Shown here: in pieces, positions 36,339-60,519 of the stretch | Layout: each line of letters opens with the position of its first letter | Position numbering within the stretch: the first letter of the stretch is position 1 | Source of the DNA: Candidatus Omnitrophota bacterium | GTDB taxonomy: Bacteria > Omnitrophota > Omnitrophia > Omnitrophales > JACROU01 | Assembly: GCA_016214265.1 (NCBI GenBank) | Contig: JACROU010000023.1 | Coordinates: 1 to 63,203, forward strand | Direction of reading: 5' to 3' | DNA length: 63,203 nucleotides | Notes under the pieces: generated by a model | Told to the model about the DNA's origin: nothing | Databases searched by the model: none | The model's input: only the letters and a program-made list of their open reading frames with translations | Made by a program: the position numbers and the translations under genes

Positions 36339-36367
36339 ATTATAGACCCGGCCTATCAGCGTGTCAA
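36339..36367 (-). promoter_or_regulatory. consensus sigma70 promoter for the tRNA (TTGACA, 17-nt spacer, TATAAT)
   Basis: On the plus strand, ATTATA at 36339-36344 and TGTCAA at 36362-36367. The -10 element lies ~34 nt upstream of the tRNA 5' end. Confidence 0.7.
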
Positions 36368-36402
36368 ACTATTTACCCCCGGGAAATAACATAACTTATT
36401 GT

Positions 36403-41466: not shown

Positions 41467-41504
41467 TTGTGTTGGATGTCCTCTCTTTAAAATCGAAGAA
41501 TTAT

Positions 41505-42428
41505 ATGATATACAAGCGTCCTATGCAAACCGCAAAAGACATTCAATGGTGTCAAAGGGAGGTGTGCCCCGCCTGTTCCGGCGGTAACTGGAGTAAGCTT
41601 TTCAGCTTCCGGCAGATTCATGTCTATCAGTGTTTGGAGTGCGGCCTGAAATTTTTAAATCCCTGTCTCAACGAATTGTCTACGGCGGCAATTTATCAAA
41701 CGTCGGATAGTTTGAAGGAAGTTAATCCGCTTCTCGAGCATTATTATGAGGAATCGCCCGAAAAAATCTGGGCAGGGATTACAGGGCGGGATTTTCAGAA
41801 AGCGCTGGAATGGCTTACGTCACGAGTTTCCGGGCGCAATATTTTAGACGTTGCATCAGGTAATGGAATTTTTCTGGGCTACGCGAAAAAACAGGGTTGG
41901 AATCCGGAGGGGGTAGATCCCAGCTGGAAGAATGCTGAATCCGTGAGAAAGAACTATCAAGTCGACGTTACGGTTAGCGGATTTTTAGAATATGACAAGT
42001 TTGAACCCAAATTTGATGTGATTACTTTCTGGGATTTCATTGAACATCCCCCAAAACCAAGCTTGTACATTCAAAAAGTAAAAAATCACCTGAAGCCCGG
42101 CGGAATTTTTGTGCTTGCCACACCGAACATTGACAATCTTCTGTATCATACGGCGGAAGCATTGTATCGAATAAGTAGCAGAAATTTTTCAGGGCCACTA
42201 GCCAAAATGTATACGATAGAGCATGCCTGTTATTTCAATTTAAAAACATTGACCCGGTTGCTTGAAAAAAACGGCTTCAAAGTCGTTCATTATTTTCAGA
42301 CCGAGTCCCATTTGGAGCGTTATACATTACCGCTTTATCAGAAGCTCGGAATTAAGACATTCTTTTACCTTAATCGACTAATCGGTAAACAGAACCGAAT
42401 CGTGGTTTTTGCGGAACGTGTGTCATGA
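41505..42428 (+). CDS. class I SAM-dependent methyltransferase with a Zn-ribbon, paralog of 36403-37287
   Basis: CPACSG...CLECGLKF, LDVASGNGIF and FDVITFWDFIEHPPKP...LKPGGIFVLATP. Start uncertain (41469 GTG, 41505 ATG or 41523 ATG). Confidence 0.75.
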   Translation: MIYKRPMQTAKDIQWCQREVCPACSGGNWSKLFSFRQIHVYQCLECGLKFLNPCLNELSTAAIYQTSDSLKEVNPLLEHYYEESPEKIWAGITGRDFQKALEWLTSRVSGRNILDVASGNGIFLGYAKKQGWNPEGVDPSWKNAESVRKNYQVDVTVSGFLEYDKFEPKFDVITFWDFIEHPPKPSLYIQKVKNHLKPGGIFVLATPNIDNLLYHTAEALYRISSRNFSGPLAKMYTIEHACYFNLKTLTRLLEKNGFKVVHYFQTESHLERYTLPLYQKLGIKTFFYLNRLIGKQNRIVVFAERVS

Positions 42429-43582
42429 ACAAAACCATCCCGTATGGCAAACATTGGATTAATGAGAGTGACATTCAGAGTGTGGTCAGAGTTCTTCGTG
42501 GTGACTGGATTACGCAGGGGCCTTTCGTTTCGCAGTTCGAAAATCAATTTGCAAGACAAGTTAAGGCGTCCTGGGCAGTTGCTGTTTCCAGCGGAACGGC
42601 AGGCCTTCATTTGGCTGTGCTTGCCCAAAATCTCAAACGGACTGACGAGGTGCTTGTTCCCGCAATCACTTTTGTTGCAACAGCCAATGCGGTTTTTTAT
42701 GCCGGTGCCAAACCACGAATTGTCGATGTGGATCCGCAAACAGGAAATATTTCGATCGAAGATTTGAAGAGGAAAATCAACAAGAATACTCGAGGGATTA
42801 TCCCGGTTCATTTTGCCGGAAATCCTGTTGACCTGAAAACGATTCGCAAAATTGCCCGCAAGCACAAAATGTTTGTGATTGAAGATTGTTGTCATGCGCT
42901 CGGAGCGGAATATGATCGGGTGCCGGTTGGTTCTTCTGAATATTCCGATTTGAGTGTTTTTAGTTTTCATCCGGTTAAACACATCACGACAGGCGAGGGA
43001 GGGATGATTACGGGAAACTCGAAGTTGATTCAAGACAGGTTTCTTAAGTTTCGCAGCCACGGAATTACGCGTAATCCGAAGCAGTTTTTAAATGGAGAGT
43101 CAGGTGCTTGGTATTATGAACAGCAGGAATTAGGATTTAATTATCGGATCACAGATTTTCAATGCGCGCTTGGAATGTCTCAGCTTAAGCGGTTGAAAAG
43201 TTTTGTTGCGAAACGTAGACGGATCGCAGAAAAATACCGGATGGCATTTCGGGACTGGCCGGAAATTGAATGTCTTTCAGAAAATCCTGACGGAAAATCT
43301 TCTTATCATCTATTCGTTGTCCGGGTTAGTTCCGGAAGGGGGGGCGTTTTTGAGGAGCTTAGAAAACGTGGAATCGGAGTCCAGGTTCATTACATCCCTC
43401 TGCATTATCACCCTTATTTCAAAAAACGGCTTGCCTTAAAAATGGGGCAGCTTCCGGGCGCTGAAAGTTTTTATGAAGAGATTATTTCGCTTCCGATTTA
43501 CCCCCAACTTTCTTCCTTTGAACAAGACCGGGTAATTCAGACACTCCGTTATGTTCTAACTCAATATCAGAAAAGAAGATAG
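42425..43582 (+). CDS. DegT/DnrJ/EryC1/StrS-family sugar aminotransferase (PseC/ArnB-like)
   Basis: IPYGKHWINESDIQSVVRVLRGDWITQGPFVSQFE, and the PLP Lys in SFHPVKHITTGEGG. Confidence 0.8.
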   Translation: MNKTIPYGKHWINESDIQSVVRVLRGDWITQGPFVSQFENQFARQVKASWAVAVSSGTAGLHLAVLAQNLKRTDEVLVPAITFVATANAVFYAGAKPRIVDVDPQTGNISIEDLKRKINKNTRGIIPVHFAGNPVDLKTIRKIARKHKMFVIEDCCHALGAEYDRVPVGSSEYSDLSVFSFHPVKHITTGEGGMITGNSKLIQDRFLKFRSHGITRNPKQFLNGESGAWYYEQQELGFNYRITDFQCALGMSQLKRLKSFVAKRRRIAEKYRMAFRDWPEIECLSENPDGKSSYHLFVVRVSSGRGGVFEELRKRGIGVQVHYIPLHYHPYFKKRLALKMGQLPGAESFYEEIISLPIYPQLSSFEQDRVIQTLRYVLTQYQKRR

Positions 43583-43678
43583 TTCTTCTCGGTTTCTCTC
43601 CAGGTTTCCCTTTACAAATAGATGTTTTGTCCTAGAATATACAGCTTTGAGCCTATTCCAAAGGAGAGATCTGCACGG

Positions 43679-44521
43679 ATGAACAACGTTGTCCTTCTGA
43701 TATTCGACAGCTGCCGTTTTGATGTATTTCAGGCGGCTAAAAAGCGCTGGATTTCCCGTCTTGGAGAGGCGGAAAAGCGCTATTCCTATTCCAGTTGGAC
43801 CTATCCCAGCCACACTACTTATTTAATGGGAATGAGTCCCCACCGCAATCCTAAAAAGGTTTTTGCCTCAAATGTATATCGTGATGATTTTCTGCTCTGG
43901 AATGATCGCTTGGGGATCGGTAACCTGGAATTTAAAAAGTTTGTCCCTACATTATCCCTCCCGTTTCTTCTTAAAGAATACGGCTATCGAAATGTTGGAT
44001 ACGTTTCGCTTCCGGTTCTGAACGAAAGCACGATTTTTAGCAAATATTTTGATGAATATCAGCTCATGACCAGCCATAACGATTTCGGAGCGATGCTGGA
44101 TCGGATGACTTTTTCGCGTGATGTGCCCAGCTTTTATTTTTTAAATATTGGCGAAACGCATTACCCTTATGCGACGCTGGAGTCGGAAAAAAACAATCTG
44201 CCGAGAATCAGCGGGGTGCATGGCGTTTTTAAAAATCTGGATGATTTTGTCGTGCGGGGTTGAGTTCGCAAAGAGGACGTTGACAAGGAAGGGTTTTTTA
44301 CCAACGAACAAATGCGAGAGTTGAAAAACAAACAGTTAGATGCGGTGGAGTACCTTGATCGTTTGTTCGAAAAACTTTATGACATCACACCACCGAATAC
44401 TCATTTTATCGTGACGGCTGATCACGGAGAGCTTTTCGGCGAAGACGATTTCTTCGGTCACGGCCCGATTATTCATGAAAAAGTTTTTGAAATCCCGTTT
44501 CTTGAAGGAAAGTTAAAATGA
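43679..44521 (+). pseudogene. alkaline-phosphatase-superfamily (sulfatase-like) enzyme, interrupted by a single in-frame TGA (44261-44263)
   Basis: Track ORFs 43622..44263 and 44312..44521 share a frame with no other stop between them. The N-terminal part has VVLLIFDSCRFD and WTYPSHTTYLMG. The C-terminal part has the second metal site TADHGELFG...GHG. Together they form one AP-fold domain. Confidence 0.7.
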
Positions 44522-45039
44522 ATTCAAAAAAAATAGCGGCGATTTTATTTACCGGAGATTCTTGCGTCGAAAAAGCATCTTACGTTCGGGCGCTTCAAGA
44601 AGTACTTAGTACTAATGGATTGAATCCTGTCGTGATAGAGGAAGTAAATTTTCCTTTCCTGAGCGCTCAACTTGAGCCGGAATGGTCCCGCGGAGTTCTG
44701 CAAACGGCTTTTGTTTTGACACAACGTGGTTATTTCGTATTGCTTCCTATTCAATTAAATGATGCCGAGAGTGTTGAGAGGGCACGGGGAACCTTCCCGT
44801 GTTTTAAAGAAGTTTATTTCAAGACTGGACAAGAAGGTGCGGGTTTGAGAAAACCCAAGCTGCCGGAATTGATGATTCAGTCCGATTTTGGTGATTTTGA
44901 TAAAAATCTTAAACAGATTTTGGATTGGATGGAAAAACAAAAAATGATCGAAAAACGCGCTGAGATGGTTGCCTCAAGTGTTTCATCTCAAGAAGCGGAT
45001 GTTATTCGTGAGAAGTTAAAGAGTCTCGGTTATCTTTGA
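44518..45039 (+). CDS. APS-kinase-like protein with a degenerate P-loop
   Basis: Its length and layout resemble adenylylsulfate kinase, but the P-loop region reads FTGDSCVEKAS instead of GxxGxGK(S/T). ATGA overlap with the upstream gene. Weak call. Confidence 0.35.
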   Translation: MNSKKIAAILFTGDSCVEKASYVRALQEVLSTNGLNPVVIEEVNFPFLSAQLEPEWSRGVLQTAFVLTQRGYFVLLPIQLNDAESVERARGTFPCFKEVYFKTGQEGAGLRKPKLPELMIQSDFGDFDKNLKQILDWMEKQKMIEKRAEMVASSVSSQEADVIREKLKSLGYL

Positions 45040-45040
45040 G

Positions 45041-47239
45041 ATGAATATTTTTAAGTTTCTTTATATTTTTTTATTAACGTATGTTCTTTTGACCGGACCT
45101 GCTTGGGCGTATATCGATCCCGGTTCGGGCATGCAGTTTTTTTCAATATTCGGACTGATTATCGGATTTCTGGCTACGCTTTTTGCACCTCTTATCATTT
45201 TTGCAAAGCGTATTTGGAAATTTATCCGAGTTATGTTTAAGCTAACGCCAAAGTGGTTGAGGTTTGGAATTGCAGGACTCGCGGCTGTCGCATTGATCTT
45301 CGGAATTTCCACTTTGTTTTCATTTGGAGGAAAGACGGTAATGACTGATACGAAAGTAATCGTGCTTGGGATGGACGGGCTTGATCCAAATTTACTCGAA
45401 CAGTTTGCTAAAGACGGCGACATGCCGCACTTCAGAAAATTGATGGATGAGGAAACTTTTTCCCGGCTTGGAACTACTAATCCACCGCAATCTTCGGTGG
45501 CTTGGTCGACATTTGCCACGGGGGCGAATCCTGGAAAACACGGGGTTTTTGATTTTATCTGGCGCGATCCCCAAAATTATGGTCTTAGTCTTTCTCTTAC
45601 TGAAACTGAGGCGCCAAGAACGGTGGATATTGGAAATGTCCGGATTCCTGTTGGCGTGCCGAAAATCAAACCACGCCGTAAGGGAGAACCTTTTTGGGAG
45701 ACTTTGAGGAAGCGTAATATTCATGCCACTATAGTTAATTTGCCGAACACATTTCCGACTGAGAAACTGGAAGGGAGGATGCTTTCGGGAATGGGAACCC
45801 CGGATATTCGTGGAACTCAGGGAACATTTTCTTTTTACACGAGCGAGCCGGTTGATCATTCGAAAGAAGTCGGCGGAAAAGTTTATGAAGTGAAATTTAA
45901 TAGCCCAACGGTAAATGCTCGATTGTACGGTCCAATTGAAATGACGGCCAGAGGAATTAAGGAGCATTCCATTCCGCTCAATTTGGAGGTATTGAAGGAT
46001 GAAAAATCTCTCAAGATTAAATTGCCTGAGAAAGAATTTACTTTAAAAGAAGGGGGCTGGAGCGACTGGATTGAAGTAAAATTTCCGGTTAATTGGTTTA
46101 AAAAAATCGATGGCATCGTCCGCTTTCATGTCAATCAAGTGAGCCCGCTCAAGCTCTATGTTTCTCCTGTCAACTTTGATCCCAACAAGCCCGCAATGCC
46201 TATTTCGTATCCCAATAATTATGCCAAAGAAATTGCGCATGAGATTGGTCTTTATCATACGCTCGGTATGCCGCATGATACTTGGGCGCTCAATGAGGGC
46301 CGCATCGACGATCTTACATTTTTGGAACAAGCCAAAACTATTCAATCTGAAAAAGAAGGAATTTTAAAAAAAGAACTTGGCCGGTTCAAATCCGGGCTTT
46401 TGATTATGTATTTCGGATCATCAGACATTCTGAGTCATATGTTCTGGAGAGCGGTTGATAAAAAGCATCCGCTTTATAACGATCAAGAAGCAAAAATGTT
46501 CGGCAATGTAATTCGCCGGTATTACAAACGTATGGACGAAGTTGTTGGCGAAATTATGAAATCGCTTGATGATAAAACCGTTTTGCTCATTCTATCCGAC
46601 CATGGTTTTAATACCTTCCGTCGCGCTGTGCATGTAAATGCGTGGCTGCGTGATCAAGGCTTCCTCGTCCTAAAAGACAATACTCAGAAAGAAGGACGTG
46701 AACTTTTGGCAGATGTGGATTGGTCAAAAACGCGCGCTTACAGCGTCGGTTTTGGCGGAATCTATATCAATCAAATCGGCCGTGAAAAGGAAGGGATTGT
46801 TTCCCCGGGGCCTGAATCGGAAAAACTGAGAGACGAGCTTATACAAAAACTTGCGGGATTTAAAGATCCTATGACGCAGCATCCAGTGGTCAAACACATT
46901 TACAAAAAAGAGGAAGTGTTTTGGGGGCCGTATGCGGAAATTGGGCCCGATCTTTTCATTGGATTTGATGCTGGCTACCGATCTTCCTGGCAAACTGCTC
47001 TTGGAGCCGTGCCCGCTATTACCATGGAAAACAATTTAAAGAAATGGAGTGGAGACCATTTGTGCGATCCTTCGCTTGTACCGGGAGTGTTTTTGGTAAA
47101 TCGAAATGTGCGCATTAATAATCCCGCGATGGTGGATATGGCTCCCACAATTCTCGCGCTGTTTGGGATCGCTAAACCTGAAGAAATGGACGGGAAGGCT
47201 TTAAATCTTGAAGAACAGAAAGTGAATGTAGCGTCATGA
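45041..47239 (+). CDS. membrane-anchored type I phosphodiesterase/nucleotide pyrophosphatase-family (AP superfamily) protein
   Basis: Three N-terminal TM helices, then VIVLGMDGLDPN...PPQSSVAWSTFATGANPGKHG and LSDHGF. Confidence 0.75.
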   Translation: MNIFKFLYIFLLTYVLLTGPAWAYIDPGSGMQFFSIFGLIIGFLATLFAPLIIFAKRIWKFIRVMFKLTPKWLRFGIAGLAAVALIFGISTLFSFGGKTVMTDTKVIVLGMDGLDPNLLEQFAKDGDMPHFRKLMDEETFSRLGTTNPPQSSVAWSTFATGANPGKHGVFDFIWRDPQNYGLSLSLTETEAPRTVDIGNVRIPVGVPKIKPRRKGEPFWETLRKRNIHATIVNLPNTFPTEKLEGRMLSGMGTPDIRGTQGTFSFYTSEPVDHSKEVGGKVYEVKFNSPTVNARLYGPIEMTARGIKEHSIPLNLEVLKDEKSLKIKLPEKEFTLKEGGWSDWIEVKFPVNWFKKIDGIVRFHVNQVSPLKLYVSPVNFDPNKPAMPISYPNNYAKEIAHEIGLYHTLGMPHDTWALNEGRIDDLTFLEQAKTIQSEKEGILKKELGRFKSGLLIMYFGSSDILSHMFWRAVDKKHPLYNDQEAKMFGNVIRRYYKRMDEVVGEIMKSLDDKTVLLILSDHGFNTFRRAVHVNAWLRDQGFLVLKDNTQKEGRELLADVDWSKTRAYSVGFGGIYINQIGREKEGIVSPGPESEKLRDELIQKLAGFKDPMTQHPVVKHIYKKEEVFWGPYAEIGPDLFIGFDAGYRSSWQTALGAVPAITMENNLKKWSGDHLCDPSLVPGVFLVNRNVRINNPAMVDMAPTILALFGIAKPEEMDGKALNLEEQKVNVAS

Positions 47240-48258
47240 TTATCGCTCGCACGCCGTTGCGTATTTGCCTTGGTGGCGGCGGCACCGATGTGAAGGAATA
47301 CTATTCTAAACACGGCGGCTATCTGATCAGCGCGGCGATCAATCAGTACATTTACATCGTAATTCACAAACATTTTGAGAAGAATATTCGACTCTGCTAT
47401 TCTCAACGCGAAATTGTTCAGACCTCGGAAGAGGTGCGACATCCGCTGGTTCATGAAGCTATGAAGATGTTTAATATCAAGGGGGGGGGCATCGAGATTA
47501 TATCTTTTGCTGACATTCCCTCTGACACCGGGTTAGGAACGTCTTCTAGTTTTTTGGTTGGACTCATCACGGTTTTGGCCGCGTATAAGAAAATTGAACT
47601 AACGCGTCATGAAATTGCCCAAATGGCCGTAAGAATCGAGCGCGAAATTTTAAAAGAAGCCGGTGGTAAACAGGATCAATATATTGCCTCATTCGGCGGA
47701 ATACAGTGCTTGATGTTCGAGAAAAATGGCCGCGTCATTCCGACCCCTCTCAACATCACAAATGAAAATGTGAAAACGCTGGAAAAAAGCGCGCTCATTT
47801 TTTACACGAATGTCCGGAGAAATTCCCCGAATGTTCAGACAAAACTGATCGAGGGAATACGCAAAAAGCAGGCAACGCTTTCAAGTTTGCATTACATCAA
47901 ACAGCTCGGTTTTCGTACCGAAGAGGTTCTTTGCAACGGCAATATTCATGAATACGGCGATTTGCTGGATGAACATTGGGAAGCTAAGAAGAAACTTTCG
48001 GACAAAATTTCAAATTCCAAAACTAATGAATTGTATGAACGCGCGCAAAAAATGGGTGCGACCGGAGGTAAGCTGATCGGTGCCGGAGGCGGAGGGTATT
48101 TGCTGCTTTATTGTTCGACAGAAAAAGCCCGCGCAAATGTCCGGAGTATGATGAAAAAAGAAAGTTGCGAGGAAATGCGTTACAAGTTTGAATTTGAAGG
48201 CACCAAAGTTCTGATCGATGACACGGCAGATGAGAAATATTACTCAATTACGAAATAA
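47236..48258 (+). CDS. hddA: GHMP kinase, D-glycero-alpha-D-manno-heptose-7-phosphate kinase-like
   Basis: MIIARTPLRICLGGGGTD N-terminus, the GLGTSSS GHMP motif and GAGGGGYL. Context with gmhA, gmhB and hddC. Confidence 0.7.
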   Translation: MIIARTPLRICLGGGGTDVKEYYSKHGGYLISAAINQYIYIVIHKHFEKNIRLCYSQREIVQTSEEVRHPLVHEAMKMFNIKGGGIEIISFADIPSDTGLGTSSSFLVGLITVLAAYKKIELTRHEIAQMAVRIEREILKEAGGKQDQYIASFGGIQCLMFEKNGRVIPTPLNITNENVKTLEKSALIFYTNVRRNSPNVQTKLIEGIRKKQATLSSLHYIKQLGFRTEEVLCNGNIHEYGDLLDEHWEAKKKLSDKISNSKTNELYERAQKMGATGGKLIGAGGGGYLLLYCSTEKARANVRSMMKKESCEEMRYKFEFEGTKVLIDDTADEKYYSITK

Positions 48259-48271
48259 AAAGGAGAAAGTA

Positions 48272-48892
48272 ATGAAAACAGCAGAAGCCAAAATGTCGAC
48301 TCGTGAATATATCAGTTGGTACATGGATGCGATGAAACAGTCGGCGGATCAGATAGATTATGGTGTGATCGAAAAAATTACGGACGCGCTTTTTAAAGTG
48401 TGGCAGAACGGCGGAACTGTTTATCTGATGGGAAACGGCGGATCGGCTTCTAACGCGTCGCATATCGTCAATGACATGGGCAAATGCACGGTTGTGCCGG
48501 GAAAAAAGCGGCTTAAAGTTCTTGGATTCACAGACAATCCATCGCTTATCACGGCTCTTGTGAATGATAATGGATTCGACAATCTTTATTCCGAGCAGCT
48601 GCTGAACTTCGTAAAACCGGGTGATGCGCTTATTGGTTTCAGCGTACACGGCGGTTCAGGACGCGATAAAGCCGGGCTTTGGTCACAGAATCTTCTGAAG
48701 GCTTTCAATATAGCCAAGGAAAATGGCTGCGTCACGATTGGTTTTAGCGGCTTCGATGGCGGCGCCATGAAAGAAATTTGCGATATTTGCTCGGTCGTGC
48801 CGTTTCCAAACACGCAGATTGTGGAATCATGGCATTTAGCGCTGGCCCAGTTAGTCTGCAATGGCTTGCTTGAAAAAATTAAAAATAGCTGA
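48272..48892 (+). CDS. gmhA: SIS-domain phosphoheptose isomerase
   Basis: LMGNGGSASNASHIVNDM and FSVHGGSG. AGGAGA RBS before ATG 48272. Confidence 0.7.
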   Translation: MKTAEAKMSTREYISWYMDAMKQSADQIDYGVIEKITDALFKVWQNGGTVYLMGNGGSASNASHIVNDMGKCTVVPGKKRLKVLGFTDNPSLITALVNDNGFDNLYSEQLLNFVKPGDALIGFSVHGGSGRDKAGLWSQNLLKAFNIAKENGCVTIGFSGFDGGAMKEICDICSVVPFPNTQIVESWHLALAQLVCNGLLEKIKNS

Positions 48893-48907
48893 GGAAAGGG
48901 GATCTTC

Positions 48908-49396
48908 ATGGATCTTTTTATTGATACAGCAAATCTGAAAGAAATTGAGGAAATCGCGCAGTGGGGCGTTGTCAAAGGCGTTACGACAAACCCGAAAATA
49001 TTTTCTCAGGAAGAAGGCGCTGACCTTAAGACACGGGTGTTTGAGATTCTCAAGCTTGTTCCGGGTCCGCTCAGTGTTGAAGTCACGACCAATGATTTTG
49101 AGGAAATGGTCGAGGAAGCGTCTGTTTATGCCGCCTGGAGTCCTTACGTTGTGGTGAAACTTCCCATGAATGAAAATGGATTACGGGCACTAAAGGTGCT
49201 CAAAGGGTATTCCACAAAAATTATTGTCGGAAGTATTCGCCATCTTCAGCACATCAATCAAGCGGCGGAAGCGGGCGCCCATATCACCACGGTGCCTTAT
49301 AAATTCTTCCGCGAGATGGCACGTCATCCTCAAACCGACAAAACCATCGACGAGTTTTTGGAAGCCTGGAATAAAATTAAGGTTCCGATCGCTTAA
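48908..49396 (+). CDS. Fsa/TalC-type transaldolase-like protein with an in-frame internal deletion
   Basis: MDLFIDTANLKEIEE...GVTTNP and the Schiff-base Lys context VVVKLP are present. After LKVLKGY the sequence jumps to the STKIIVGSIRH...AGAHITTVPYKFF region. At 162 aa it is shorter than I expect for this family. Confidence 0.6.
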   Translation: MDLFIDTANLKEIEEIAQWGVVKGVTTNPKIFSQEEGADLKTRVFEILKLVPGPLSVEVTTNDFEEMVEEASVYAAWSPYVVVKLPMNENGLRALKVLKGYSTKIIVGSIRHLQHINQAAEAGAHITTVPYKFFREMARHPQTDKTIDEFLEAWNKIKVPIA

Positions 49397-49401
49397 TTTC
49401 G

Positions 49402-50094
49402 ATGCAAGCGCTTATCCTGGCGGGAGGATTGGGAACGCGGCTCAGGCCGATCACGTATTCCGTTTCGAAGTGCATGGTTCCGGTGGCGGGGAAACCGTTT
49501 GTCGAGCACCTGATTTCAAGACTTGTAAAGTCAGGGGTTCGTGATTTTATTCTTGCGGTCGGTTACCTCGCCGGTCAAGTGCAGGCATATTTGGGTGATG
49601 GCTCGAAATGGCAATGCCGAATCCGTTATTCGATAGAAGATCCGCCTCGCGGAACCGGAGGTGCGCTGGATCAGGCGAAAGATTTGTTGTCGGACGAGTT
49701 TCTTTTCCTAAACGGGGATAATCTGGTTCATCTAGATTATTTGAGTTTTATACAGTTCTTTCACAAACATCCTGATTGGATCGGCGCCATGACCGTTTTT
49801 TCTGACGATTACGGAAAATTCAGAAAGAATGCCGCTTGGGACCAAAAGCTTCCTGTCATTCAGGCTTATGATTATGAAAACCCAGCAGGAAAGAATTTCG
49901 TGGATTCGGGCGCCAAAATTTTTAGGAAAGCTGTTTTGAAATATCTTCCGAAGAAGCAGGATTTTTCATTGGAAAAAGAGGTTTTGTCCCTGCTGGCTAA
50001 GGAAGGTAAGCTGGGTGCGTATCAGGTTCAGTTTGCCCCGCTTGAAATTGGAAATCATGACCAGCTTAAAGAAGCCGAAGAAGCGTTGAAATGA
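49402..50094 (+). CDS. hddC: sugar-1-phosphate nucleotidyltransferase, heptose-1-phosphate guanylyltransferase-like
   Basis: MQALILAGGLGTRLRPIT..SKCMVPVAGKP. Context. Confidence 0.65.
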   Translation: MQALILAGGLGTRLRPITYSVSKCMVPVAGKPFVEHLISRLVKSGVRDFILAVGYLAGQVQAYLGDGSKWQCRIRYSIEDPPRGTGGALDQAKDLLSDEFLFLNGDNLVHLDYLSFIQFFHKHPDWIGAMTVFSDDYGKFRKNAAWDQKLPVIQAYDYENPAGKNFVDSGAKIFRKAVLKYLPKKQDFSLEKEVLSLLAKEGKLGAYQVQFAPLEIGNHDQLKEAEEALK

Positions 50095-50696
50095 ATAATT
50101 GCAGCAATCAAAGAGCCGTCTTTCTCGACCGGGACGGAGTGATTAATGAGATATTGTTTTTCGAAGATCTTGGGATTCTAGAAACACCGTTTCATCCAAA
50201 GCACTTGAAGCTATTGCCGCACGTTCCCAAGGCAATCAAAAGATTGAATCGGGCGGGATTTAAGGTGCTTGTGGTTTCGAATCAGCCCGGCGTTGGTATG
50301 GGGCATTTTTCAGAAGAAATGTTGCTTAAAATTAACCACAAAATGCTGAATTTGATTGAAAAACAAGGCGCAAGGATTGACGGCGTTTTTTATTGTCTGC
50401 ATCATCCCGAAAAGGGACGAGGGATCTATCGCAAAAAATGCCGCTGTAGAAAGCCAAAGCCCGGCCTTTTAGATCTCGCTAAAAAGGAATTCAATGTGAA
50501 TCTTGCGCAGTCCTATTTGATTGGGGACAGTATTTCTGATGTGCAGGCAGGGCGGGCGCGTAAAGTGAAAACGATTTTGTTGGGCAGGAGAAAATGCGAT
50601 CTTTGTGATCTCATGTCAAGAAAAGGAATCAAACCCAACTGGATGGCCAAGAATTTACTTGAGGCCGTAAGACAGATTGAAAGGCTTGAAAAATAA
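50091..50696 (+). CDS. gmhB: HAD-IIIA D,D-heptose-1,7-bisphosphate phosphatase
   Basis: AVFLDRDGVIN, SNQPGV, the Zn-loop CLHHPE...CRCRKPKPGLL, and GDSISD. Confidence 0.8.
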   Translation: MNNCSNQRAVFLDRDGVINEILFFEDLGILETPFHPKHLKLLPHVPKAIKRLNRAGFKVLVVSNQPGVGMGHFSEEMLLKINHKMLNLIEKQGARIDGVFYCLHHPEKGRGIYRKKCRCRKPKPGLLDLAKKEFNVNLAQSYLIGDSISDVQAGRARKVKTILLGRRKCDLCDLMSRKGIKPNWMAKNLLEAVRQIERLEK

Positions 50697-50697
50697 A

Positions 50698-51426
50698 ATG
50701 TTATCCGTGGCGATTCCGTTTTACAACGAGGAAGAGAACGTGGACAGGGTTATACGGGGAATCGTAAGGGTTTTTAACGATGCGGCCCTTGAGGATTACG
50801 AAATATTGGCGGTTAATAATGGATCCTGGGACAAAACCGGCGAGATCTTAACTGATCTGAACGCGAATAATCCTCGTATTCGAATTGTCCATGTAATGAA
50901 AAACAAAGGCCTTGGCTGGGGGATTCTTCAAGGACTTGCGCAGGCAAGAGGCGAATACCTTTGTATTCAATGCGGTGATGGGCAGACAGAACCTGACGAA
51001 ATCATTCGCGTTTTTGAAACCTTAAAGAAATATCAACTGGATTTATGTAAAGTCCGGCGTGTTGTTCGAGGGGATGGACCGTTTCGGGCTTTTATTTCTT
51101 GGGTTTTTAATGCGCTTTCTACAATTATGTTTTCAGTCAAGACAGATGATGTCAACGGTTTACCTAAAGTGATGACCCGAAAAGCCTATGAGGATTTATC
51201 GCTTCGGTCATCGGATTGGTTTATTGATGCCGAAATTATGATAAAGGCTGCCCGTCTTCGGCTTAAGCAGGGTGAGGTTGAAACCGAGTTTCTTAAACGT
51301 GAAGGCGGAAGCTCTAACGTCAATTGGAAAACGGTGATGGAATTTATCAAAAACATGATTAAATATCGAATCAAGGGATTTGAAACTGAAAAATGTTTAA
51401 AACAAACAATTCACTCAAGGTCGTAA
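50698..51426 (+). CDS. GT2 polyprenyl-phosphate sugar synthase-like (DPM1/ArnC/CsbB type)
   Basis: LSVAIPFYNEEENV, AVNNGSWDKTGE and IQCGDGQ. ATG 50698 lies 1 nt after the gmhB stop. Confidence 0.7.
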   Translation: MLSVAIPFYNEEENVDRVIRGIVRVFNDAALEDYEILAVNNGSWDKTGEILTDLNANNPRIRIVHVMKNKGLGWGILQGLAQARGEYLCIQCGDGQTEPDEIIRVFETLKKYQLDLCKVRRVVRGDGPFRAFISWVFNALSTIMFSVKTDDVNGLPKVMTRKAYEDLSLRSSDWFIDAEIMIKAARLRLKQGEVETEFLKREGGSSNVNWKTVMEFIKNMIKYRIKGFETEKCLKQTIHSRS

Positions 51427-52190
51427 TTCTCTGCGGGGGGGCCGGTACCCGACTGAAGGAAGAAACGGATTTCCGACCGAAACCCCTTGTTGAAGTAGGC
51501 ACCCGCCCGATATTGTGGCACATCATGAAGATTTTTTCACATTTTGGATTCAACGATTTCATACTCTGTTTGGGGCATAAAGGGCACATGATCAAAGAAT
51601 ATTTTATGAATTATGTGATCCGGAATAATGATTTCACCATTAATTTAGACAAGCCCGGAGAAATTAAATTCCACGGTGATCACAATGAGGGGCATTGGAA
51701 AATTACTTTGGTGGATACGGGGCTTAACACGATGACGGGGGGGCGCATCAAGAGGGTTCAGCGTTATGTAGACACGGATCCATTTCTTGTAACCTACGGG
51801 GACGGCGTGGCGGATGTTGATATTCTGAAATTGCTCGAATATCACAAAAAACAGAATACGATCGCGACGGTTACGGGTGTTCAGCCGCTGTCCCAATTTG
51901 GCATTATCGAAATGGAACGGGAAGGGAAGGCCATGGGATTCAAGGAAAAACCCAAGCTGGATTCTTGGGTTAACGGCGGATTCTTCGTCTTTCAGAATAA
52001 ATTTTTCGATTATTTAACAGATGATTCTGTGCTTGAGCAAGAGCCTCTTAAAAAGTTGGCTAGCGAGAAGCAACTTGCTATTTATCCGCATCAGGGGTTT
52101 TGGCAATGTATGGATACATTCAAAGATGTGGAGGGTTTAAATCAATTGTGGCAGGAAAAACGGGCGGAGTGGAAAGTTTGGAAGGAATAG
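51393..52190 (+). CDS. rfbF: glucose-1-phosphate cytidylyltransferase
   Basis: VVILCGGAGTRLKEETDFRPKPLVEVGTRPILWHIMKIFSHFGFNDFILCLGHKGHMIKEYF is typical of RfbF. Confidence 0.85.
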   Translation: MFKTNNSLKVVILCGGAGTRLKEETDFRPKPLVEVGTRPILWHIMKIFSHFGFNDFILCLGHKGHMIKEYFMNYVIRNNDFTINLDKPGEIKFHGDHNEGHWKITLVDTGLNTMTGGRIKRVQRYVDTDPFLVTYGDGVADVDILKLLEYHKKQNTIATVTGVQPLSQFGIIEMEREGKAMGFKEKPKLDSWVNGGFFVFQNKFFDYLTDDSVLEQEPLKKLASEKQLAIYPHQGFWQCMDTFKDVEGLNQLWQEKRAEWKVWKE

Positions 52191-52195
52191 CGTCT

Positions 52196-53215
52196 ATGAC
52201 AGAAAATAAGTGGAAAAATCAGTCCATCTGCGTCACCGGAGCGACCGGATTAGTGGGGGCCTGGCTCGTCGATCGGCTCATAGGCGAGGGCGCGCGCGTG
52301 GTCGTGCTTATCCGAGATGAGGTGATGGATTCCGCGCTTAAATTTTCAGGAAATATTGAAAAAGTGAACCGGGTTCACGGGGGCCTGGAGGATATTAAAT
52401 TACTCGAAAGAATTTTCGTTGATTATGATGTAGAGCATCTGTTCCATCTGGCGGCGCAAACGATTGTCGGCGTGGCCAACGGATCGCCCGTTTCCACGTT
52501 CGAAACCAATATCCGGGGAACCTGGAATATTCTTGAGGCCGCGCGGGTTTACGGAAAACTGAAATCCATCGTGGTTGCCTCAAGCGATAAGGCTTACGGT
52601 AATCAACCGTCTCCGTATGATGAATCTACTCCGCTGGCAGGTAAATATCCGTACGACGTGTCGAAATCGTGTACGGATTTGATTGCACAATCATATGCTG
52701 TGAGTTTTGATCTCCCAATTGGAATTACGCGGTCAGGGAATATTTATGGAGGCGGAGATTTTAATTATTCGCGGATCATTCCCGGTTCTATCCAAATGAT
52801 ACTGGAAGGGAAAGATCCGATTATTCGAAGCGATGGCTCGCATCTTCGCGATTATTTGTATGTTCAGGATGTAGTCGACGGATACCTCGCGATTGCCGAA
52901 GCGATTCGAGAAGGAAAATGCAACGGTGAAGCTTTTAATTTCGGACACAAGGAACCCGTGAGTGTGCTGGAAATTGTCAATCTGCTCATTAAAGTTTCCG
53001 GAAGAAAAGGTTTGAAGCCGGATGTTCGCGGAAAATCAAAAGCCGCAAGAGAGATTGATGCCCAGTGGTTGGCTACGGATAAAGCCCAGAGATTGCTGGG
53101 GTGGACGCCGAAAATTTCGCTGGAGGACGGGCTTCGCGCTACGTTTACCTGGTATGAAAATTATTTCCTTTCCACAACAAAAAATGCGCCAAAAATCCAA
53201 TTCGCTAGAGTCTGA
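52196..53215 (+). CDS. SDR-family nucleotide-sugar 4,6-dehydratase/epimerase (CDP-glucose 4,6-dehydratase candidate, by context)
   Basis: VTGATGLVGAWLV Rossmann motif, SSDKAYG and YDVSKSC (YxxxK). Immediately follows rfbF. Confidence 0.65.
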   Translation: MTENKWKNQSICVTGATGLVGAWLVDRLIGEGARVVVLIRDEVMDSALKFSGNIEKVNRVHGGLEDIKLLERIFVDYDVEHLFHLAAQTIVGVANGSPVSTFETNIRGTWNILEAARVYGKLKSIVVASSDKAYGNQPSPYDESTPLAGKYPYDVSKSCTDLIAQSYAVSFDLPIGITRSGNIYGGGDFNYSRIIPGSIQMILEGKDPIIRSDGSHLRDYLYVQDVVDGYLAIAEAIREGKCNGEAFNFGHKEPVSVLEIVNLLIKVSGRKGLKPDVRGKSKAAREIDAQWLATDKAQRLLGWTPKISLEDGLRATFTWYENYFLSTTKNAPKIQFARV

Positions 53216-54866
53216 AATTTTCTCCCGAATTAATGAAAAGCATCTTGTCTTCGCAGTTCTCACACTTGCTTTCATTCTGAGGATCATCGGAATTGGATAT
53301 GGCCTGCCATTCAACTATCACGCCGACGAACAACTTGAAATTAATCAGACGATGGGGTTTGGCACGGGTGATCTCAATCCTCATTTCTTTAAATTACCCC
53401 CCCTGGTGACCTATCTTCTTTTTCCATTCTACGGACTCTTCTACGCAATCGGTCATGTTCTTGGTTGGTTTTCGAGCCCAGAAGCGTTTCTTGGATATTA
53501 TCTGAAAGATTCCACAGTTTTTTATCTCATCGCGCGGATCATTTTCGGGGCCTTGCTCGGAACACTGGGGGTCTTTCTCGTCTTTCGACTCGCGCGACGC
53601 TTCTTCGGCGAGAGAACGGCGTTTGCCGCCTCATTCCTGCTCGCCGTGAATTTTCTTCATGTTCGGGACAGTCATTTCTTTTATCTCGACTTGCCGCTAC
53701 TGGCGATTTTGACGGGAGGGATGTATTTCGTTCTCTCAGTTCTAGAAGAAGGAAAACCCGGTGATTATTTGTGGTGCGGATTTTTTGTGGGGCTGGCTAC
53801 GGCAATGAAATATAACGGTGTGTGGCTCGCTGTGCCTTATCTTGCCGCGCATCTCATCAGAAATTGGAAAAATTTTATAAACGCGATTTTTTTCTGGCCG
53901 TTATGGTTGTCCGGAGTTATTTGCATCTTATCCTTTTTTGCGATGAATCCTTTTGCTGTATCGGACTGGAATTTCTTTTTGAAAGAAGGGCTTGGCCAGC
54001 TAAGCGCCGAAGGTTCTTCGGGGTTTTGGCATCATTTCGTGTATTCGCTCAATAATGGTTTGGGGTGGGGACTGACCGTTTTATCGTTGATCGGTATCGG
54101 TCTTGGTTTTTTCCTTCGTAATCCGAGGATTTGGATTTTCTCCGTCTGGATTGTGAGCTATTACCTTTTGCTTGCGAAGGGGAGTCAGCCTCATGACCGG
54201 TATGTTCTGCCGCTTATTCCGTTCATGATTTTGACGGCGGCGTGGGCTCTTGATCAGTTGAGGGTGCGAGGGGCGGTTTTTGCGGCGATAATTTGTCTTG
54301 TAGCTGCTTCTAATTTTGTTAAATCGTCTCTGCTTGATTATTTGCTTCTCCAGAAAGATTCCCGGACTGTGGCGCGGGAAGCGTTGATCACGCGGCTGCC
54401 TACGGATGCCGAGGTGGCTATTGGAGAGCCTTATTTCTTCGCGCCTCGTCTGCCGCGCTCAAAAAGTCAGCTGGGGGCACTTTCAAGCCGGGCGCTCGAC
54501 GAAGGTGTGGATCCCGTTAAAATGAAGCGACTGATGAAAATGGCGGAAAGCGCTTCAGAAAAAGGATTTCAGCTGTATTTTCTTAATGAAGTTCCGGAAA
54601 ATAAATCCAGCTATTTCTCAACACGCCCGCAGATTGGCTATAACGAATTAAAGAAAAACAATATTAGTTTCATTGTCCTGCCAAGATTAAAGAGGTATGA
54701 ACTCAAAGAAGATGCCCGGCTTATAACGAGGTTTAGCCCTTATTGGGATGATCGTGTGAAGCAGGCTCTTGATCCCGCGATTCGCACATCAACTCCCAGT
54801 TCGTGGAAAGAGTTATTGGCGCGCAAATCTTTTGGAGAGATTATTGATGTCTATGAAATTAGATAA
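53184..54866 (+). CDS. GT-C (ArnT/PMT-like) membrane glycosyltransferase
   Basis: Polytopic. The first periplasmic loop GLPFNYHADEQ carries the acidic DE motif. Alternative start at 53154; both overlap the upstream gene. Confidence 0.65.
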   Translation: MRQKSNSLESEIFSRINEKHLVFAVLTLAFILRIIGIGYGLPFNYHADEQLEINQTMGFGTGDLNPHFFKLPPLVTYLLFPFYGLFYAIGHVLGWFSSPEAFLGYYLKDSTVFYLIARIIFGALLGTLGVFLVFRLARRFFGERTAFAASFLLAVNFLHVRDSHFFYLDLPLLAILTGGMYFVLSVLEEGKPGDYLWCGFFVGLATAMKYNGVWLAVPYLAAHLIRNWKNFINAIFFWPLWLSGVICILSFFAMNPFAVSDWNFFLKEGLGQLSAEGSSGFWHHFVYSLNNGLGWGLTVLSLIGIGLGFFLRNPRIWIFSVWIVSYYLLLAKGSQPHDRYVLPLIPFMILTAAWALDQLRVRGAVFAAIICLVAASNFVKSSLLDYLLLQKDSRTVAREALITRLPTDAEVAIGEPYFFAPRLPRSKSQLGALSSRALDEGVDPVKMKRLMKMAESASEKGFQLYFLNEVPENKSSYFSTRPQIGYNELKKNNISFIVLPRLKRYELKEDARLITRFSPYWDDRVKQALDPAIRTSTPSSWKELLARKSFGEIIDVYEIR

Positions 54867-57084
54867 GACAAAGAAGCTAGGCGCCATTCTCCGGGGTGAC
54901 CTGGGATTTGTGCTCCTCCTGTGCGGCGTAATTTTTGTATACCTGTTTGACTTGTTCACGCTCCGTTATGGATTTTTAAGCGGAGATCATCTGGCTCAGC
55001 ATTATCCGTGGGCGAGTTTTCTTTGGGACGAAATCCATCACTTGCGCTTGCCTTGGTGGTGCCCATTCAATCAATGCGGATTTCCGCTGCTGGCTGAGGG
55101 GCAGGTGGGGGCGTTTTATCCGCCGAACCTGATTTTTTTGGGACTTTTACCGTTCGATATCGCCTATAACTACGAGGTTCTGTTTCATTATCTTGTTGCG
55201 GGTGTCGGATTTTATTTTTATGTACGCCGTATCGGCTTGCGCAGTGTGGCAGCATTGTTGGGGGCTGTCATATTTTTGTTCGGTTCAGCCCAGGGGGGCT
55301 TTTCCTATAATATAACCTCGCAAAGGGTATTAGCATGGTTTCCGATCTGCCTGCTTTTGATTGATTGTATGCTTGAGAATCCCCGGCCGGTTTATTGCGG
55401 GCTTTTGGCTCTGGTTTTGGCGCTCCAGGCCGTAGCAGGTTATCAGCAATTCTCAATTTATTTTTATGGGTTCGCTTGTTTCTATTTCATTTTTCTTTTA
55501 TTCAAGGGGCCTTACGAGCAGAAATTTAAATCGTTCTTATCGTTCGCGTTGGCCGTGTTTCTTTCGATCGGGCTTAGTCTACCGCAGTGGATCCCGTTTT
55601 TAGAGCTGAGCCAGTTTTCTTCCAGAGTGAATTCGGTTGAGGCATTGGCGTATGTCGGATCTCTGAATCCTTTCGGATTCGCAACGCTTTATTTTCCATC
55701 GTGGCATGGCTTTTTGGGAACGGATTTTTACGTCAGTGTCCTTGGAGTTTTTCTGGCGATCAGTGGATTGGCGGGGAGGAAAAACTGCCATACTTGGGCC
55801 GTTTTAGCTTTGTTGGTAGTCAGTCTTTTGTACGCACTTGGGAAATTCGATCCACTCTACGTGGCCTTTATCAAGTCAACCCATTTTTATGCGTTTAGAG
55901 TTCCCGCAAAAGTTCTTTTCTTTTCTTCGTTATGCCTGTCGATTTTGGCGGCTATGGGATTCGATAAGGTTCTCTCCGGCGGGGAAGATCAATCGGTAAA
56001 ACGTACTCGTAACATTTTCTTTTGGCTGAGTGCGATTGTTCTTTTGGGATTTGCTGCGTCCGGTATCCTTCTTCGAGCCGGAAAAGACGTTATTTATCCG
56101 ATTGCGGAGCAGTATGTAAAAAGTCATTTTGGCGGATCCGTGATTCATCCTTATTCCATAGAGGTATACCTTGCTAAGCTAAAGTCGGTTTATGACGTCC
56201 TTTTATTGCAGACCGATATTTTTAATCCGAGAATTATTACGGCTGTCTCAGCGATAATCGTTTCGGTTTTTGCCACGTTCTGGATTAAAAGGATTTCTCC
56301 CTGGGTTTTTATTCTGATTATTTCCGTTGATCTTTTTTTGTTTGGCTTGATTAGTGTGAAAGGAAATTATGAATCCTTCGCCGTTACCAGGCCGAAATCG
56401 AAAATCCTGGATATGATCAAGCATGACAAGGCGCGTTTTCGTGTGCTTACTTTCATGAACGAAGCCGACGCTCAAAAGGGAAGACAATACCCCTCGTTCC
56501 CCAATTTTAATGTCTATCCTCGGATTGAGGATGTTGGCATTTACTCTCCTTTCGCGATGAAATTGTATAAACAATTTTTAGGCGGTTTGGGTTCTGTTAA
56601 TGATTCGTTATTTTTATCAGCGGGATCCCGGAAAGCTCTGTTCGAGAAACGGGAATTGCTTAATTTCTTAAGTGTCAAATACATAGTTTCGGGCGAGCCG
56701 CTTTCCGATTTTTCTCTTATTTGTGAAGAAAACGGGTTTTATTTATATGAAAATAGGGATTGGCATTCTCGCTACTCGGGAATTGATGATGTCAAGGAAG
56801 TGGAAAGGAAGTCTGGCCGGGTTTTACTTCAAGCAAATGCAAAAGAAAGCGGTGAATTAGTAGTCTCCGAAATTAATTATCCGGGTTGGAAGTCTTTTAT
56901 TGACGGAAAAGAAGTTGTGATCAAACCGTATCAAGGCCTTTTCAGAAGTGTCGACGTTCCCATGGGGGCCCATCAAATTGAATTTCGATATACCGTATCC
57001 CGTTTTAACTGGACCTTTGTGGTGGCGGGATTAATGCTGGGAGTTTGCTTCTTATGTATTCTTTCCTATTCGCGCTTATCCTAG
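54847..57084 (+). CDS. YfhO-family GT-C membrane glycosyltransferase
   Basis: More than 12 TM helices. The C-terminal SEINYPGWKSFIDGKEVVIKPYQGLFRSVDVPMGAHQIEFRY and a final TM helix are characteristic of YfhO proteins. Confidence 0.7.
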   Translation: MSMKLDKTKKLGAILRGDLGFVLLLCGVIFVYLFDLFTLRYGFLSGDHLAQHYPWASFLWDEIHHLRLPWWCPFNQCGFPLLAEGQVGAFYPPNLIFLGLLPFDIAYNYEVLFHYLVAGVGFYFYVRRIGLRSVAALLGAVIFLFGSAQGGFSYNITSQRVLAWFPICLLLIDCMLENPRPVYCGLLALVLALQAVAGYQQFSIYFYGFACFYFIFLLFKGPYEQKFKSFLSFALAVFLSIGLSLPQWIPFLELSQFSSRVNSVEALAYVGSLNPFGFATLYFPSWHGFLGTDFYVSVLGVFLAISGLAGRKNCHTWAVLALLVVSLLYALGKFDPLYVAFIKSTHFYAFRVPAKVLFFSSLCLSILAAMGFDKVLSGGEDQSVKRTRNIFFWLSAIVLLGFAASGILLRAGKDVIYPIAEQYVKSHFGGSVIHPYSIEVYLAKLKSVYDVLLLQTDIFNPRIITAVSAIIVSVFATFWIKRISPWVFILIISVDLFLFGLISVKGNYESFAVTRPKSKILDMIKHDKARFRVLTFMNEADAQKGRQYPSFPNFNVYPRIEDVGIYSPFAMKLYKQFLGGLGSVNDSLFLSAGSRKALFEKRELLNFLSVKYIVSGEPLSDFSLICEENGFYLYENRDWHSRYSGIDDVKEVERKSGRVLLQANAKESGELVVSEINYPGWKSFIDGKEVVIKPYQGLFRSVDVPMGAHQIEFRYTVSRFNWTFVVAGLMLGVCFLCILSYSRLS

Positions 57085-58544: not shown

Positions 58545-58582
58545 TTTTGTTTTAGGCGTAGTAGCGTCGCAGAAAAACAGTT

Positions 58583-60457: not shown

Positions 60458-60519
60458 GATGTTTTCCTCATAAAATGCCGTATAATATAGCCCTATATTT
60501 CAAATTCAAAGGAGAATTT

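Follow-up and report, generated by a model that had tools for sequence, protein, structure and literature searches.

Lipid-phosphate-linked monosaccharides are, to our knowledge, the sole sugar donors outside the cytoplasmic membrane, and the known ones form a small set (mannose, glucose, N-acetylglucosamine (GlcNAc), galactose, 4-amino-4-deoxy-L-arabinose (L-Ara4N) and sugars of the arabino- and ribofuranose type). In the three-component systems ArnC/ArnT, GtrB/GtrA/GtrC and CsbB/GtcA/YfhO, a family 2 glycosyltransferase (GT2) loads polyprenyl phosphate (polyprenyl-P) at the cytoplasmic face, and a polytopic GT-C enzyme (PMT_2, YfhO) transfers the sugar outside. Heptose transfer is, as far as we know, so far restricted to the cytoplasm, with ADP- or GDP-heptose as the donor. 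Here we describe an envelope-glycosylation island of ~25 kb (about 36.3–61.3 kb, starting after a tRNA-Met) in a 63,203-nucleotide stretch of DNA from a Candidatus Omnitrophota bacterium (contig JACROU010000023.1 of assembly GCA_016214265.1; hereafter, the window), which shares this division of labor and encodes a heptose-nucleotide cassette, a CDP-glucose module, two GT2 enzymes (GT2a, 50698–51426; GT2b, 60475–61317) and three GT-C proteins.

A first-pass annotation of this DNA had suggested that the GT2 encoded directly after the heptose gene gmhB (GT2a) might make a polyprenyl-P-heptose carrier. In our analysis the idea of such a carrier survives as a working proposal, on account of the synteny of GT2b and its conserved ligands of dolichyl-phosphate mannose synthase (DPMS), but not for the enzyme beside gmhB. 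We propose, with about even chances of being right, a two-module island in which the heptose nucleotide is used by GT2b and a CDP-sugar by GT2a, the two sugar-nucleotide modules supplying two cytoplasmic-face polyprenyl-P sugar synthases that would work with three periplasm-facing GT-C enzymes. Module 1 (47236–50696) would convert sedoheptulose-7-phosphate, topped up by a transaldolase, to a nucleoside diphosphate (NDP)-heptose via GmhA, HddA, GmhB and HddC; as the recurrent gene neighborhood suggests, GT2b would then move the heptose to polyprenyl-P, and after flipping, the PMT_2-type GT-C at 57045–58544 would pass it to an acceptor. In module 2 (50698–53215), RfbF would form CDP-glucose and RfbG CDP-4-keto-6-deoxyglucose, and GT2a, with its observed fold and synteny and its predicted donor, would put a CDP-hexose-derived sugar on polyprenyl phosphate, a product that may serve another GT-C (53022–54866 or the YfhO-like 54769–57084).

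Taken together, the genes of the island represent a new form of the polyprenyl-P plus GT-C glycosylation theme. Unlike the three-component systems, its donor modules are for CDP-hexose and NDP-heptose instead of UDP-sugars, three GT-C and two GT2 enzymes lie in one island, no GtrA- or ArnE/F-like flippase was found in it, and GT2a and GT2b both lack the C-terminal transmembrane (TM) helices of ArnC and GtrB. The literature searched, whose coverage is incomplete and no proof of novelty, yielded no report of a polyprenyl-, undecaprenyl- or dolichyl-phosphate heptose or of a CDP-sugar-dependent polyprenyl-P glycosyltransferase, and nothing relevant on heptose in three-component or GT-C systems or in Omnitrophota. 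We put the chance that the island makes at least one new lipid-linked donor, either polyprenyl-P-heptose or a polyprenyl-P (6-deoxy)hexose made from a CDP-sugar by the GT2a family, at slightly under one half. If true, polyprenyl-P-heptose would be both a new donor and a new route to periplasmic or surface (extracytoplasmic) heptosylation, and the GT2a family would comprise the first CDP-dependent polyprenyl-phosphate glycosyltransferases. Both GT2s should be easy to assay because they are small and free of TM helices.

An alpha-route heptose cassette

The described GDP-heptose pathway (Campylobacter, Aneurinibacillus) resembles the cassette of the window in that four enzyme families are encoded in one cluster and follow the same pathway logic (PMC10680097). 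Nine closely spaced plus-strand genes at 45041–53215 are followed here by genes for three polytopic membrane proteins, and the order hddA-gmhA-tal-hddC-gmhB read by the first-pass annotation is confirmed, with all five genes on the plus strand at the positions expected. The hddA-like gene (47236–48258) encodes a GHMP kinase (domains PF00288 and PF08544) with full-length similarity to the model of D-glycero-D-manno-heptose-7-phosphate 1-kinase of the alpha route (NF049969, 204 bits, E 5e-60, equivalog cut-off 600), fucokinase ranking second among NCBIfam models with 116 bits. It is followed by a gmhA-like gene for a SIS-type sedoheptulose-7-phosphate isomerase (48272–48892; PF13580 (SIS_2); TIGR00441, 81 bits, cut-off 209), whose open reading frame (ORF) opens at 48218 and likely starts at ATG 48272, and by tal, encoding a transaldolase of the Fsa/TalC type (48908–49396; TAL_FSA, fsa_talC; TIGR00875, 141 bits; 162 amino acids (aa) in the window). 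Next come the hddC-like sugar-1-phosphate nucleotidyltransferase gene (49402–50094; PF00483 (NTP_transferase)) and the gmhB-like gene for a HAD-IIIA heptose-1,7-bisphosphate 7-phosphatase (50091–50696), which scores 148 bits with NF006506 (cut-off 178) and 120 bits with TIGR00213 (cut-off 150), and exceeds the cut-offs of TIGR01656 and TIGR01662. All heptose-enzyme scores are below the NCBI equivalog cut-offs, and the assignments are made at the family level and reinforced by co-clustering; the putative GmhB, for instance, matches its family but falls just short of the equivalog thresholds.

The choice between the alpha and beta routes, which the first-pass annotation had left to a classification of the kinase, comes out on the alpha side. 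Compared with solved structures, the kinase scores 171 bits with the heptose-7-phosphate kinases 4N3O and 4USK/WcbL vs. 79 bits with fucokinase, and it groups with HddA/WcbL and not with the PfkB/HldE kinases of the ADP-heptose route; a scan of cluster ORFs between 39.4 and 61.3 kb gave no PfkB/HldE domain. Since the kinase is of the GHMP and not the PfkB/HldE type, the cassette is therefore assigned to the alpha route rather than to the ADP-heptose route. The nucleotidyltransferase is probably a guanylyltransferase, as suggested by the models and structures at the top of its match lists, i.e., the Rv mannose-1-phosphate guanylyltransferase model (118 bits) and HddC (NF049965, 95 bits), human GMPPB (93 bits) and Yersinia HddC (5XHW/6JQ8, 77 bits), with MurU and archaeal GlmU models scoring similarly, such that nucleotide specificity is not readable from the scores. 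Of the four-enzyme GDP-heptose route claimed before, a complete alpha-route pathway to NDP-D-glycero-D-manno-heptose is upheld at the family level, and GDP as its nucleotide is the predicted part.

Beyond the likeness of these two enzymes to their counterparts, the cassette departs from the described pathway in several respects. Its sequences are distant (all below equivalog cut-offs), a transaldolase gene is built into it, and its product appears to be used further on by polyprenyl-P and GT-C enzymes and not by the cytoplasmic glycosyltransferases of capsule and S-layer glycan. A metagenome scan with the kinase profile yielded 80 loci among the matches listed (41–50% identity, the close clade of the window kinase not being among them), in which the kinase gene is accompanied by HddC-like (67/80), SIS (47/80), GmhB (42/80) and Tal (24/80) genes. 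Since the kinase recurs with these partners across the 80 loci, the cassette is no chance arrangement, and it is, as judged from sequence, a new and distant member of a known pathway. The best protein matches to the window come from Candidatus Omnitrophica/Omnitrophota metagenome-assembled genomes (67–80% identity).

The short tal of the window was clarified by a comparison with contigs of the source metagenome. The window sequence is present in four groundwater-metagenome runs, and the contig from the deepest of them (X1; 52 kb, depth 60) is collinear with window positions 44000–62000 except for seven single-nucleotide polymorphisms and a stretch of 168 nucleotides that the window lacks at the 49204/49205 junction. 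This stretch corresponds to 56 codons and restores a segment (KNIKTNVTA...) that all relatives carry in the alignment; a loose end in another source contig (X3) reads the same missing segment of tal. The full gene product has ~218 aa, and the short version goes back to an omission in the assembly or represents a minor variant. As the source-metagenome contigs contain the missing 168 nucleotides, the shortening is not biology, and an in-frame-deleted tal pseudogene, which we had considered, is ruled out on the same ground.

GT2b as the candidate user of the heptose nucleotide

By sequence, fold and synteny, GT2b (60475–61317, plus strand; likely start at ATG 60520, giving 265 aa) is a homologue of the DPM1/Ppm1-type polyprenyl-phosphate mannose synthases. 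Its sequence scores 124 bits with PfDPMS vs. 35 bits with ArnC and includes a DPM1-like motif (MDGDGSHNP). In a Foldseek search with its structural model (pLDDT 90), the top three matches are all PfDPMS (33–35% identity, root-mean-square deviation of 2.0 Å or slightly more). The identity to PfDPMS (5MLZ/5MM0) extends over the catalytic domain, and the ligands of the DPMS enzymes (DPM1, Ppm1, PfDPMS) are kept: in the GT2b clade, residues D38, D39, D89, D91, S93, H94, R117, R131, S135, E182, R202 and K208 (PfDPMS numbering) are all invariant or nearly so. Like eukaryotic DPM1 and the catalytic domain of Ppm1, GT2b has no TM domain.

Both GT2b and GT2a show the features of the polyprenyl-P glycosyltransferase class, i.e., a GT-A domain, the Asp and Gln/Ser of the DXDxQ motif, an acceptor-phosphate Arg and C-terminal interface helices. 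TM-like segments were seen in neither of them by a hydropathy scan. This lack of a C-terminal TM anchor is not disqualifying, because the catalytic subunits DPM1 and Ppm1 are also free of TM helices and a truncated PfDPMS is active. In the latter case, truncation 230–352 leaves both activity and membrane targeting in place (PMC5526996).

The link to heptose comes from the neighborhood of GT2b in relatives. We have sampled the close kinase clade (HddA at least 57% identical) by 12 exact-protein look-ups and counted only loci with enough context, of which six were found from the kinase (L001, L166–L170) and three from proteins of the GT2b clade (L171–L173). A GT2b-clade gene stands beside alpha-heptose genes in all nine, in differing gene orders, and a PMT-type GT-C is found near GT2b in seven of the nine. 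GT2b ends the same operon HddA-GmhA-Tal-GmhB-GT2b in L001 (63% identical to that of the window), and in L171 an operon HddC-GmhB-GT2b (65%) is followed by a convergent GT-C and methyltransferase pair. In L172, one operon reads YfhO-methyltransferase-GT-C-GT2b (55%)-HddC-like-HddA-like. A GT2b-methyltransferase-PMT_2 GT-C group is divergent from the cassette in L166, L167 and L169; GT2b is convergent with the cassette and abuts gmhB in L168 and L170; and L173 carries PMT_2-GT2b (50%)-PMT_2, with heptose genes 5–10 kb off (a GHMP kinase, GmhA, a short-chain dehydrogenase/reductase (SDR), an HddC::GmhB fusion, an RmlC-like gene and another SDR). In eight more cases, a GT2b match and a kinase match sit on contigs of identical size.

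These observations have to be weighed against the possibility that neither GT2 uses heptose, in which case the NDP-heptose would go to a cytoplasmic (Leloir) heptosyltransferase for an undecaprenyl-diphosphate-linked or other glycan, and GT2b would be a plain polyprenyl-P-mannose synthase feeding GT-C enzymes. We regard this as the strongest of the competing explanations and as a serious one, although less likely than not. It would agree with the public database names of GT2b homologues (NCBI and JGI: polyprenol monophosphomannose synthase or dolichol-phosphate mannosyltransferase), with the conservation of every DPMS ligand of mannose and GDP, with the presence of another GT2 gene at 39440–40486, and with the cytoplasmic location of all characterized GDP-heptose-using glycosyltransferases known to us (Campylobacter capsule and Aneurinibacillus S-layer glycan; PMC10680097). 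It would also agree with the wider cassette family, where 78 of the 80 loci among the matches listed are devoid of a GT2b-like gene and the two that have one give weak matches. On the other hand, the homologues of GT2b fall into a close clade (at least 50% identity, at least 257 bits) set apart from the ordinary Ppm1-like proteins (at most 47% identity, at most 216 bits) by fixed substitutions around the donor-sugar site, namely L69 to R/C, T156 to S, F179 to I, Q180 to G, M183 to T and A142 to Y; a further fixed difference is M209 to F. GDP-manno-heptose differs from GDP-mannose by an additional carbon at C6, and several of these swaps are to smaller residues, which fits a GDP-manno-heptose donor without proving it. 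Positions 179–183 flank Phe177 and Lys178; in PfDPMS, Leu69 and Phe177 have been implicated in telling sugars apart, and Lys178 forms bonds to O4/O6 of mannose (PMC5526996). Furthermore, unlike other DPMS enzymes, this subclade is tied genomically to heptose and not to mannose genes: heptose genes accompany it in all nine loci despite several rearrangements, no genes for the synthesis of GDP-mannose were observed next to GT2b, and the adjoining nucleotidyltransferases are HddC-like.

GT2b is thus, in our view, the most likely user of the heptose nucleotide, an assignment that several observations nevertheless weaken. All loci behind the GT2b-heptose link belong to one lineage (at least 57% identity in HddA; probably Omnitrophota relatives throughout), and since large many-sugar glycan islands are involved, shared ancestry or island co-location could yield the same pattern. 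In L168 and L170, a UDP-sugar operon (UDP-sugar dehydrogenase, GFO/IDH/MocA oxidoreductase and two epimerase-family SDRs) ends with GT2b. The cassette operons HddA-GmhA-Tal-GmhB of L001 (14840–17787) and L168 (2909–6130) contain no HddC-like gene, though GT2b abuts both. Within the window, a distance of 9.8 kb that includes a gene of opposite orientation separates GT2b from the cassette, and a crude hydropathy scan of 36–62 kb for a flippase (GtrA-, GtcA- or ArnE/F-like) found no small ORF with at least three hydrophobic segments.

Gene fusions and pairings with the GmhB-like phosphatase were also seen in other loci: a GT2::HAD fusion of 439 aa in L170 (5452–6771), an HddC::GmhB fusion of 416 aa in L173 (14934–16184), and a GT2 gene directly followed by a HAD gene in L004 (18830–20189). 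The GT2-HAD cases hint that the heptose phosphatase step may be functionally linked to a GT2. In addition, a methyltransferase of the Methyltransf_23 type recurs by the pair of GT2b and PMT_2 GT-C in L001, L166–L169, L171 and L172. Two genes of this type are present in the window island (41469–42428 and 36361–37287), and their products may methylate the sugar.

GT2a and the CDP-glucose module

GT2a (50698–51426, plus strand, 242 aa) is the first gene of GT2a-rfbF-rfbG and encodes a polyprenyl-phosphate glycosyltransferase as judged by profile, fold and synteny. A profile built from 29 sequences scores, over the whole catalytic domain, 115 bits with ArnC, 108 with PfDPMS and 94 with GtrB. In a Foldseek search with its AlphaFold (AF2) model (pLDDT 92), the top 22 matches are all ArnC, GtrB or DPMS (TM-score 0.61–0.82), and the metal ligands D94 and Q96 as well as the acceptor-phosphate ligand R121 are invariant or nearly so. 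The earlier description of the gene after gmhB as a GT2 of the polyprenyl-phosphate-sugar-synthase type therefore stands; its description as DPM1-like does not, the fold being all that the two have in common and GT2b being the real DPM1/Ppm1 homologue. As in the Arn pathway, sugar-nucleotide tailoring genes share the operon with the GT2, and ArnC is its best solved match.

Downstream of GT2a, and overlapping it by 34 nucleotides, rfbF (51393–52190, plus strand) encodes a glucose-1-phosphate cytidylyltransferase (TIGR02623, 336 bits, above the equivalog cut-off of 300). It is followed by an rfbG-like gene (52196–53215, plus strand; ORF opening at 52100) for a CDP-glucose 4,6-dehydratase, for which TIGR02622 is the best SDR model with 209 bits, below its cut-off of 278. 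A census of 80 genomes with GT2a homologues (36–50% identity; RfbF homologues counted if at least 40% identical) placed RfbF within 3 kb of GT2a in 37/80 loci, directly downstream on the same strand in 24/80, and an RfbG homologue nearby in 23/80. By comparison, the 80 kinase-centered loci described above, which doubled as a control set, contained RfbF in one case among the matches listed. In none of the 80 genomes was a HddA, GmhA or Tal homologue found within 10 kb of the GT2a homologue. The GT2a-RfbF(-RfbG) arrangement spans Desulforamulus, Anaerolineae, Methanocellaceae, Melainabacteria, Nitrospinota, Woesearchaeota and others, and the census also includes Planctomycetota. In the cultivable Desulforamulus reducens MI-1, GT2a-RfbF-RfbG-SDR stands beside a GT-C of the MptA/B family, and no heptose genes lie within 10 kb on either side of this module. 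The occurrence of GT2a-RfbF-RfbG in many bacterial and archaeal phyla could mark a CDP-sugar branch of this enzyme class.

The residues that read the donor in PfDPMS provide a second line of evidence. According to the structural work on that enzyme, Asp39 hydrogen-bonds guanine N1/N2, and Asp89 and His94 are the ligands of mannose O2 and O3, respectively (PMC5526996). Using a residue mapping of GT2a to PfDPMS (mafft --keeplength) up to about residue 120, the range in which it is reliable, we found the position of Asp39, which is Asp also in ArnC, occupied by Asn41 in 28 of the 29 GT2a family members. In place of Asp89, the window protein has Cys92 and the family varies; in place of His94, the window protein has Thr97, and Val, Ile or Met occur across the family. 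Because the RfbF/RfbG neighbors are conserved and the guanine and mannose ligands of DPMS are missing, the donor of GT2a is likely a CDP-hexose; an Asn at the base-reading position might suit cytosine, though we only infer this.

A CDP-sugar donor is not the sole reading of these data. GT2a could instead be an ordinary GtrB/CsbB-like synthase of undecaprenyl-phosphate-linked glucose or GlcNAc with a UDP-sugar as donor, and the proximity of rfbF and rfbG could reflect island co-location. We give this a minor share of the probability, less than that of the plain mannose synthase discussed for GT2b. In its favor, the UDP-dependent ArnC and GtrB are among the closest solved relatives of GT2a, a CDP-dependent enzyme of the class has no precedent in the literature searched, and 43 of the 80 GT2a loci, several of them short contigs, have no RfbF within 3 kb. 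The last point counts directly against the CDP-hexose assignment, as does the lack, after RfbG in the window, of a reductase gene that would define the final CDP-sugar for GT2a. Against a UDP-sugar donor speak the same-strand succession of GT2a and RfbF in 24 loci from bacteria and archaea and the replacement of the base-contacting Asp of UDP- and GDP-dependent relatives by a near-invariant Asn.

The use of GDP-heptose by GT2a to form polyprenyl-P-heptose, as originally suggested for the gene adjoining gmhB, is very improbable: in its favor are the shared operon, in which GT2a starts one nucleotide downstream of the stop of gmhB, the polyprenyl-P glycosyltransferase fold, the GT-C genes downstream and the same gene order in the nearest relative (L165, a 7-kb contig), and against it are the confinement of this adjacency to the window and L165, the census (heptose genes in 0/80 loci, RfbF in 37/80), the heptose-free module of D. 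reducens, the replacement of the guanine ligand Asp39 by Asn with Asp89 and His94 not kept, and the arrangement in L001, where GT2a is 55% identical and the heptose genes lie on the opposite strand and end with GT2b. The one-nucleotide gap reported before is real (TAA stop at 50694–50696, one base, ATG at 50698; AAAAA TAA A ATG TTA), but it singles out nothing, since tight spacing or overlap is the norm in this operon (e.g., 4-nucleotide overlaps at 47236 and 50091). On our reading, two modules have merged locally into one operon, and GT2a and gmhB are neighbors without being a functional pair. More generally, tight adjacency inside a long operon can mislead if comparative context is missing.

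An aminotransferase gene upstream (42425–43582) passes the equivalog cut-off for PseC of the pseudaminic-acid pathway (487 vs. 423 bits). It has no PseB-type dehydratase gene as a neighbor in the window, where the rfbG-like gene is the closest one for a 4,6-dehydratase, and an ArnB-like amination of a CDP-4-keto sugar by this enzyme is conceivable.

Membrane proteins and flanking genes

The presence of GT-C enzymes near the GT2 is borne out by Pfam matches of three proteins downstream of GT2a, all encoded on the plus strand. The first (53022–54866) is a PMT_2-type glycosyltransferase (PF13231, 61.5 bits) with at least 7 TM-like segments. The second (54769–57084) is YfhO-like (PF09586, 28.8 bits) with 12 TM-like segments, and its homologues in L001 and L172 are 39% and 30% identical. 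The third (57045–58544) is PMT_2-like (PF13231, 25.4 bits, just below the cut-off), with homologues 27–31% identical in L166, L167, L169, L171 and L172, for which PMT_2 was recorded (weakly in L171 and L172); this is the type of GT-C found with GT2b and the heptose cassette in relatives. A sequence search of the PDB with two of the GT-C proteins gave no useful matches, and the GT-C calls are based on Pfam.

Two membrane-anchored proteins of the alkaline-phosphatase superfamily are encoded on either side of this region. The gene at 45041–47239 (plus strand), which overlaps hddA by 4 nucleotides, encodes a 732-aa protein of the alkaline-phosphatase superfamily (Phosphodiest, PF01663, 129 bits) with three N-terminal TM-like segments according to hydropathy. 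The gene at 58583–60457 (minus strand) encodes a sulfatase-family protein (PF00884, 181 bits) of EptA/LtaS-like architecture, with weak EptA and LtaS matches and four N-terminal TM-like segments. A 522-aa protein encoded inside the glycan island at 37956–39524 (minus strand) has at least 9 TM-like segments and no Pfam match, and could be a further GT-C, a polymerase or a flippase. Upstream of the operon, two same-frame ORFs (43622–44263 and 44312–44521) resemble a split alkaline-phosphatase/STM4013-like hydrolase. In contig X1, the stop at 44261–44263 is lost because position 44261 is G and not T, and the two would then probably read as a single gene of ~299 aa (43622–44521).

A scan for promoters and terminators over 44–62 kb gave counts near the shuffled expectation (23 vs. 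26.9 and 30 vs. 23.2) and did not inform operon boundaries. In the last 1.9 kb of the window (61318–63203), ORFs do not exceed 102 aa, and there are neither Rfam matches nor significant repeats. The remainder of the window is of housekeeping character (pyrimidine synthesis, cytochrome bd, ATP synthase). Within its F-type ATP synthase operon, the c-subunit ORF (22953–23672, 239 aa) has three ATP-synt_C matches and may encode a triplicated-hairpin c subunit, which would be unusual in such an operon.

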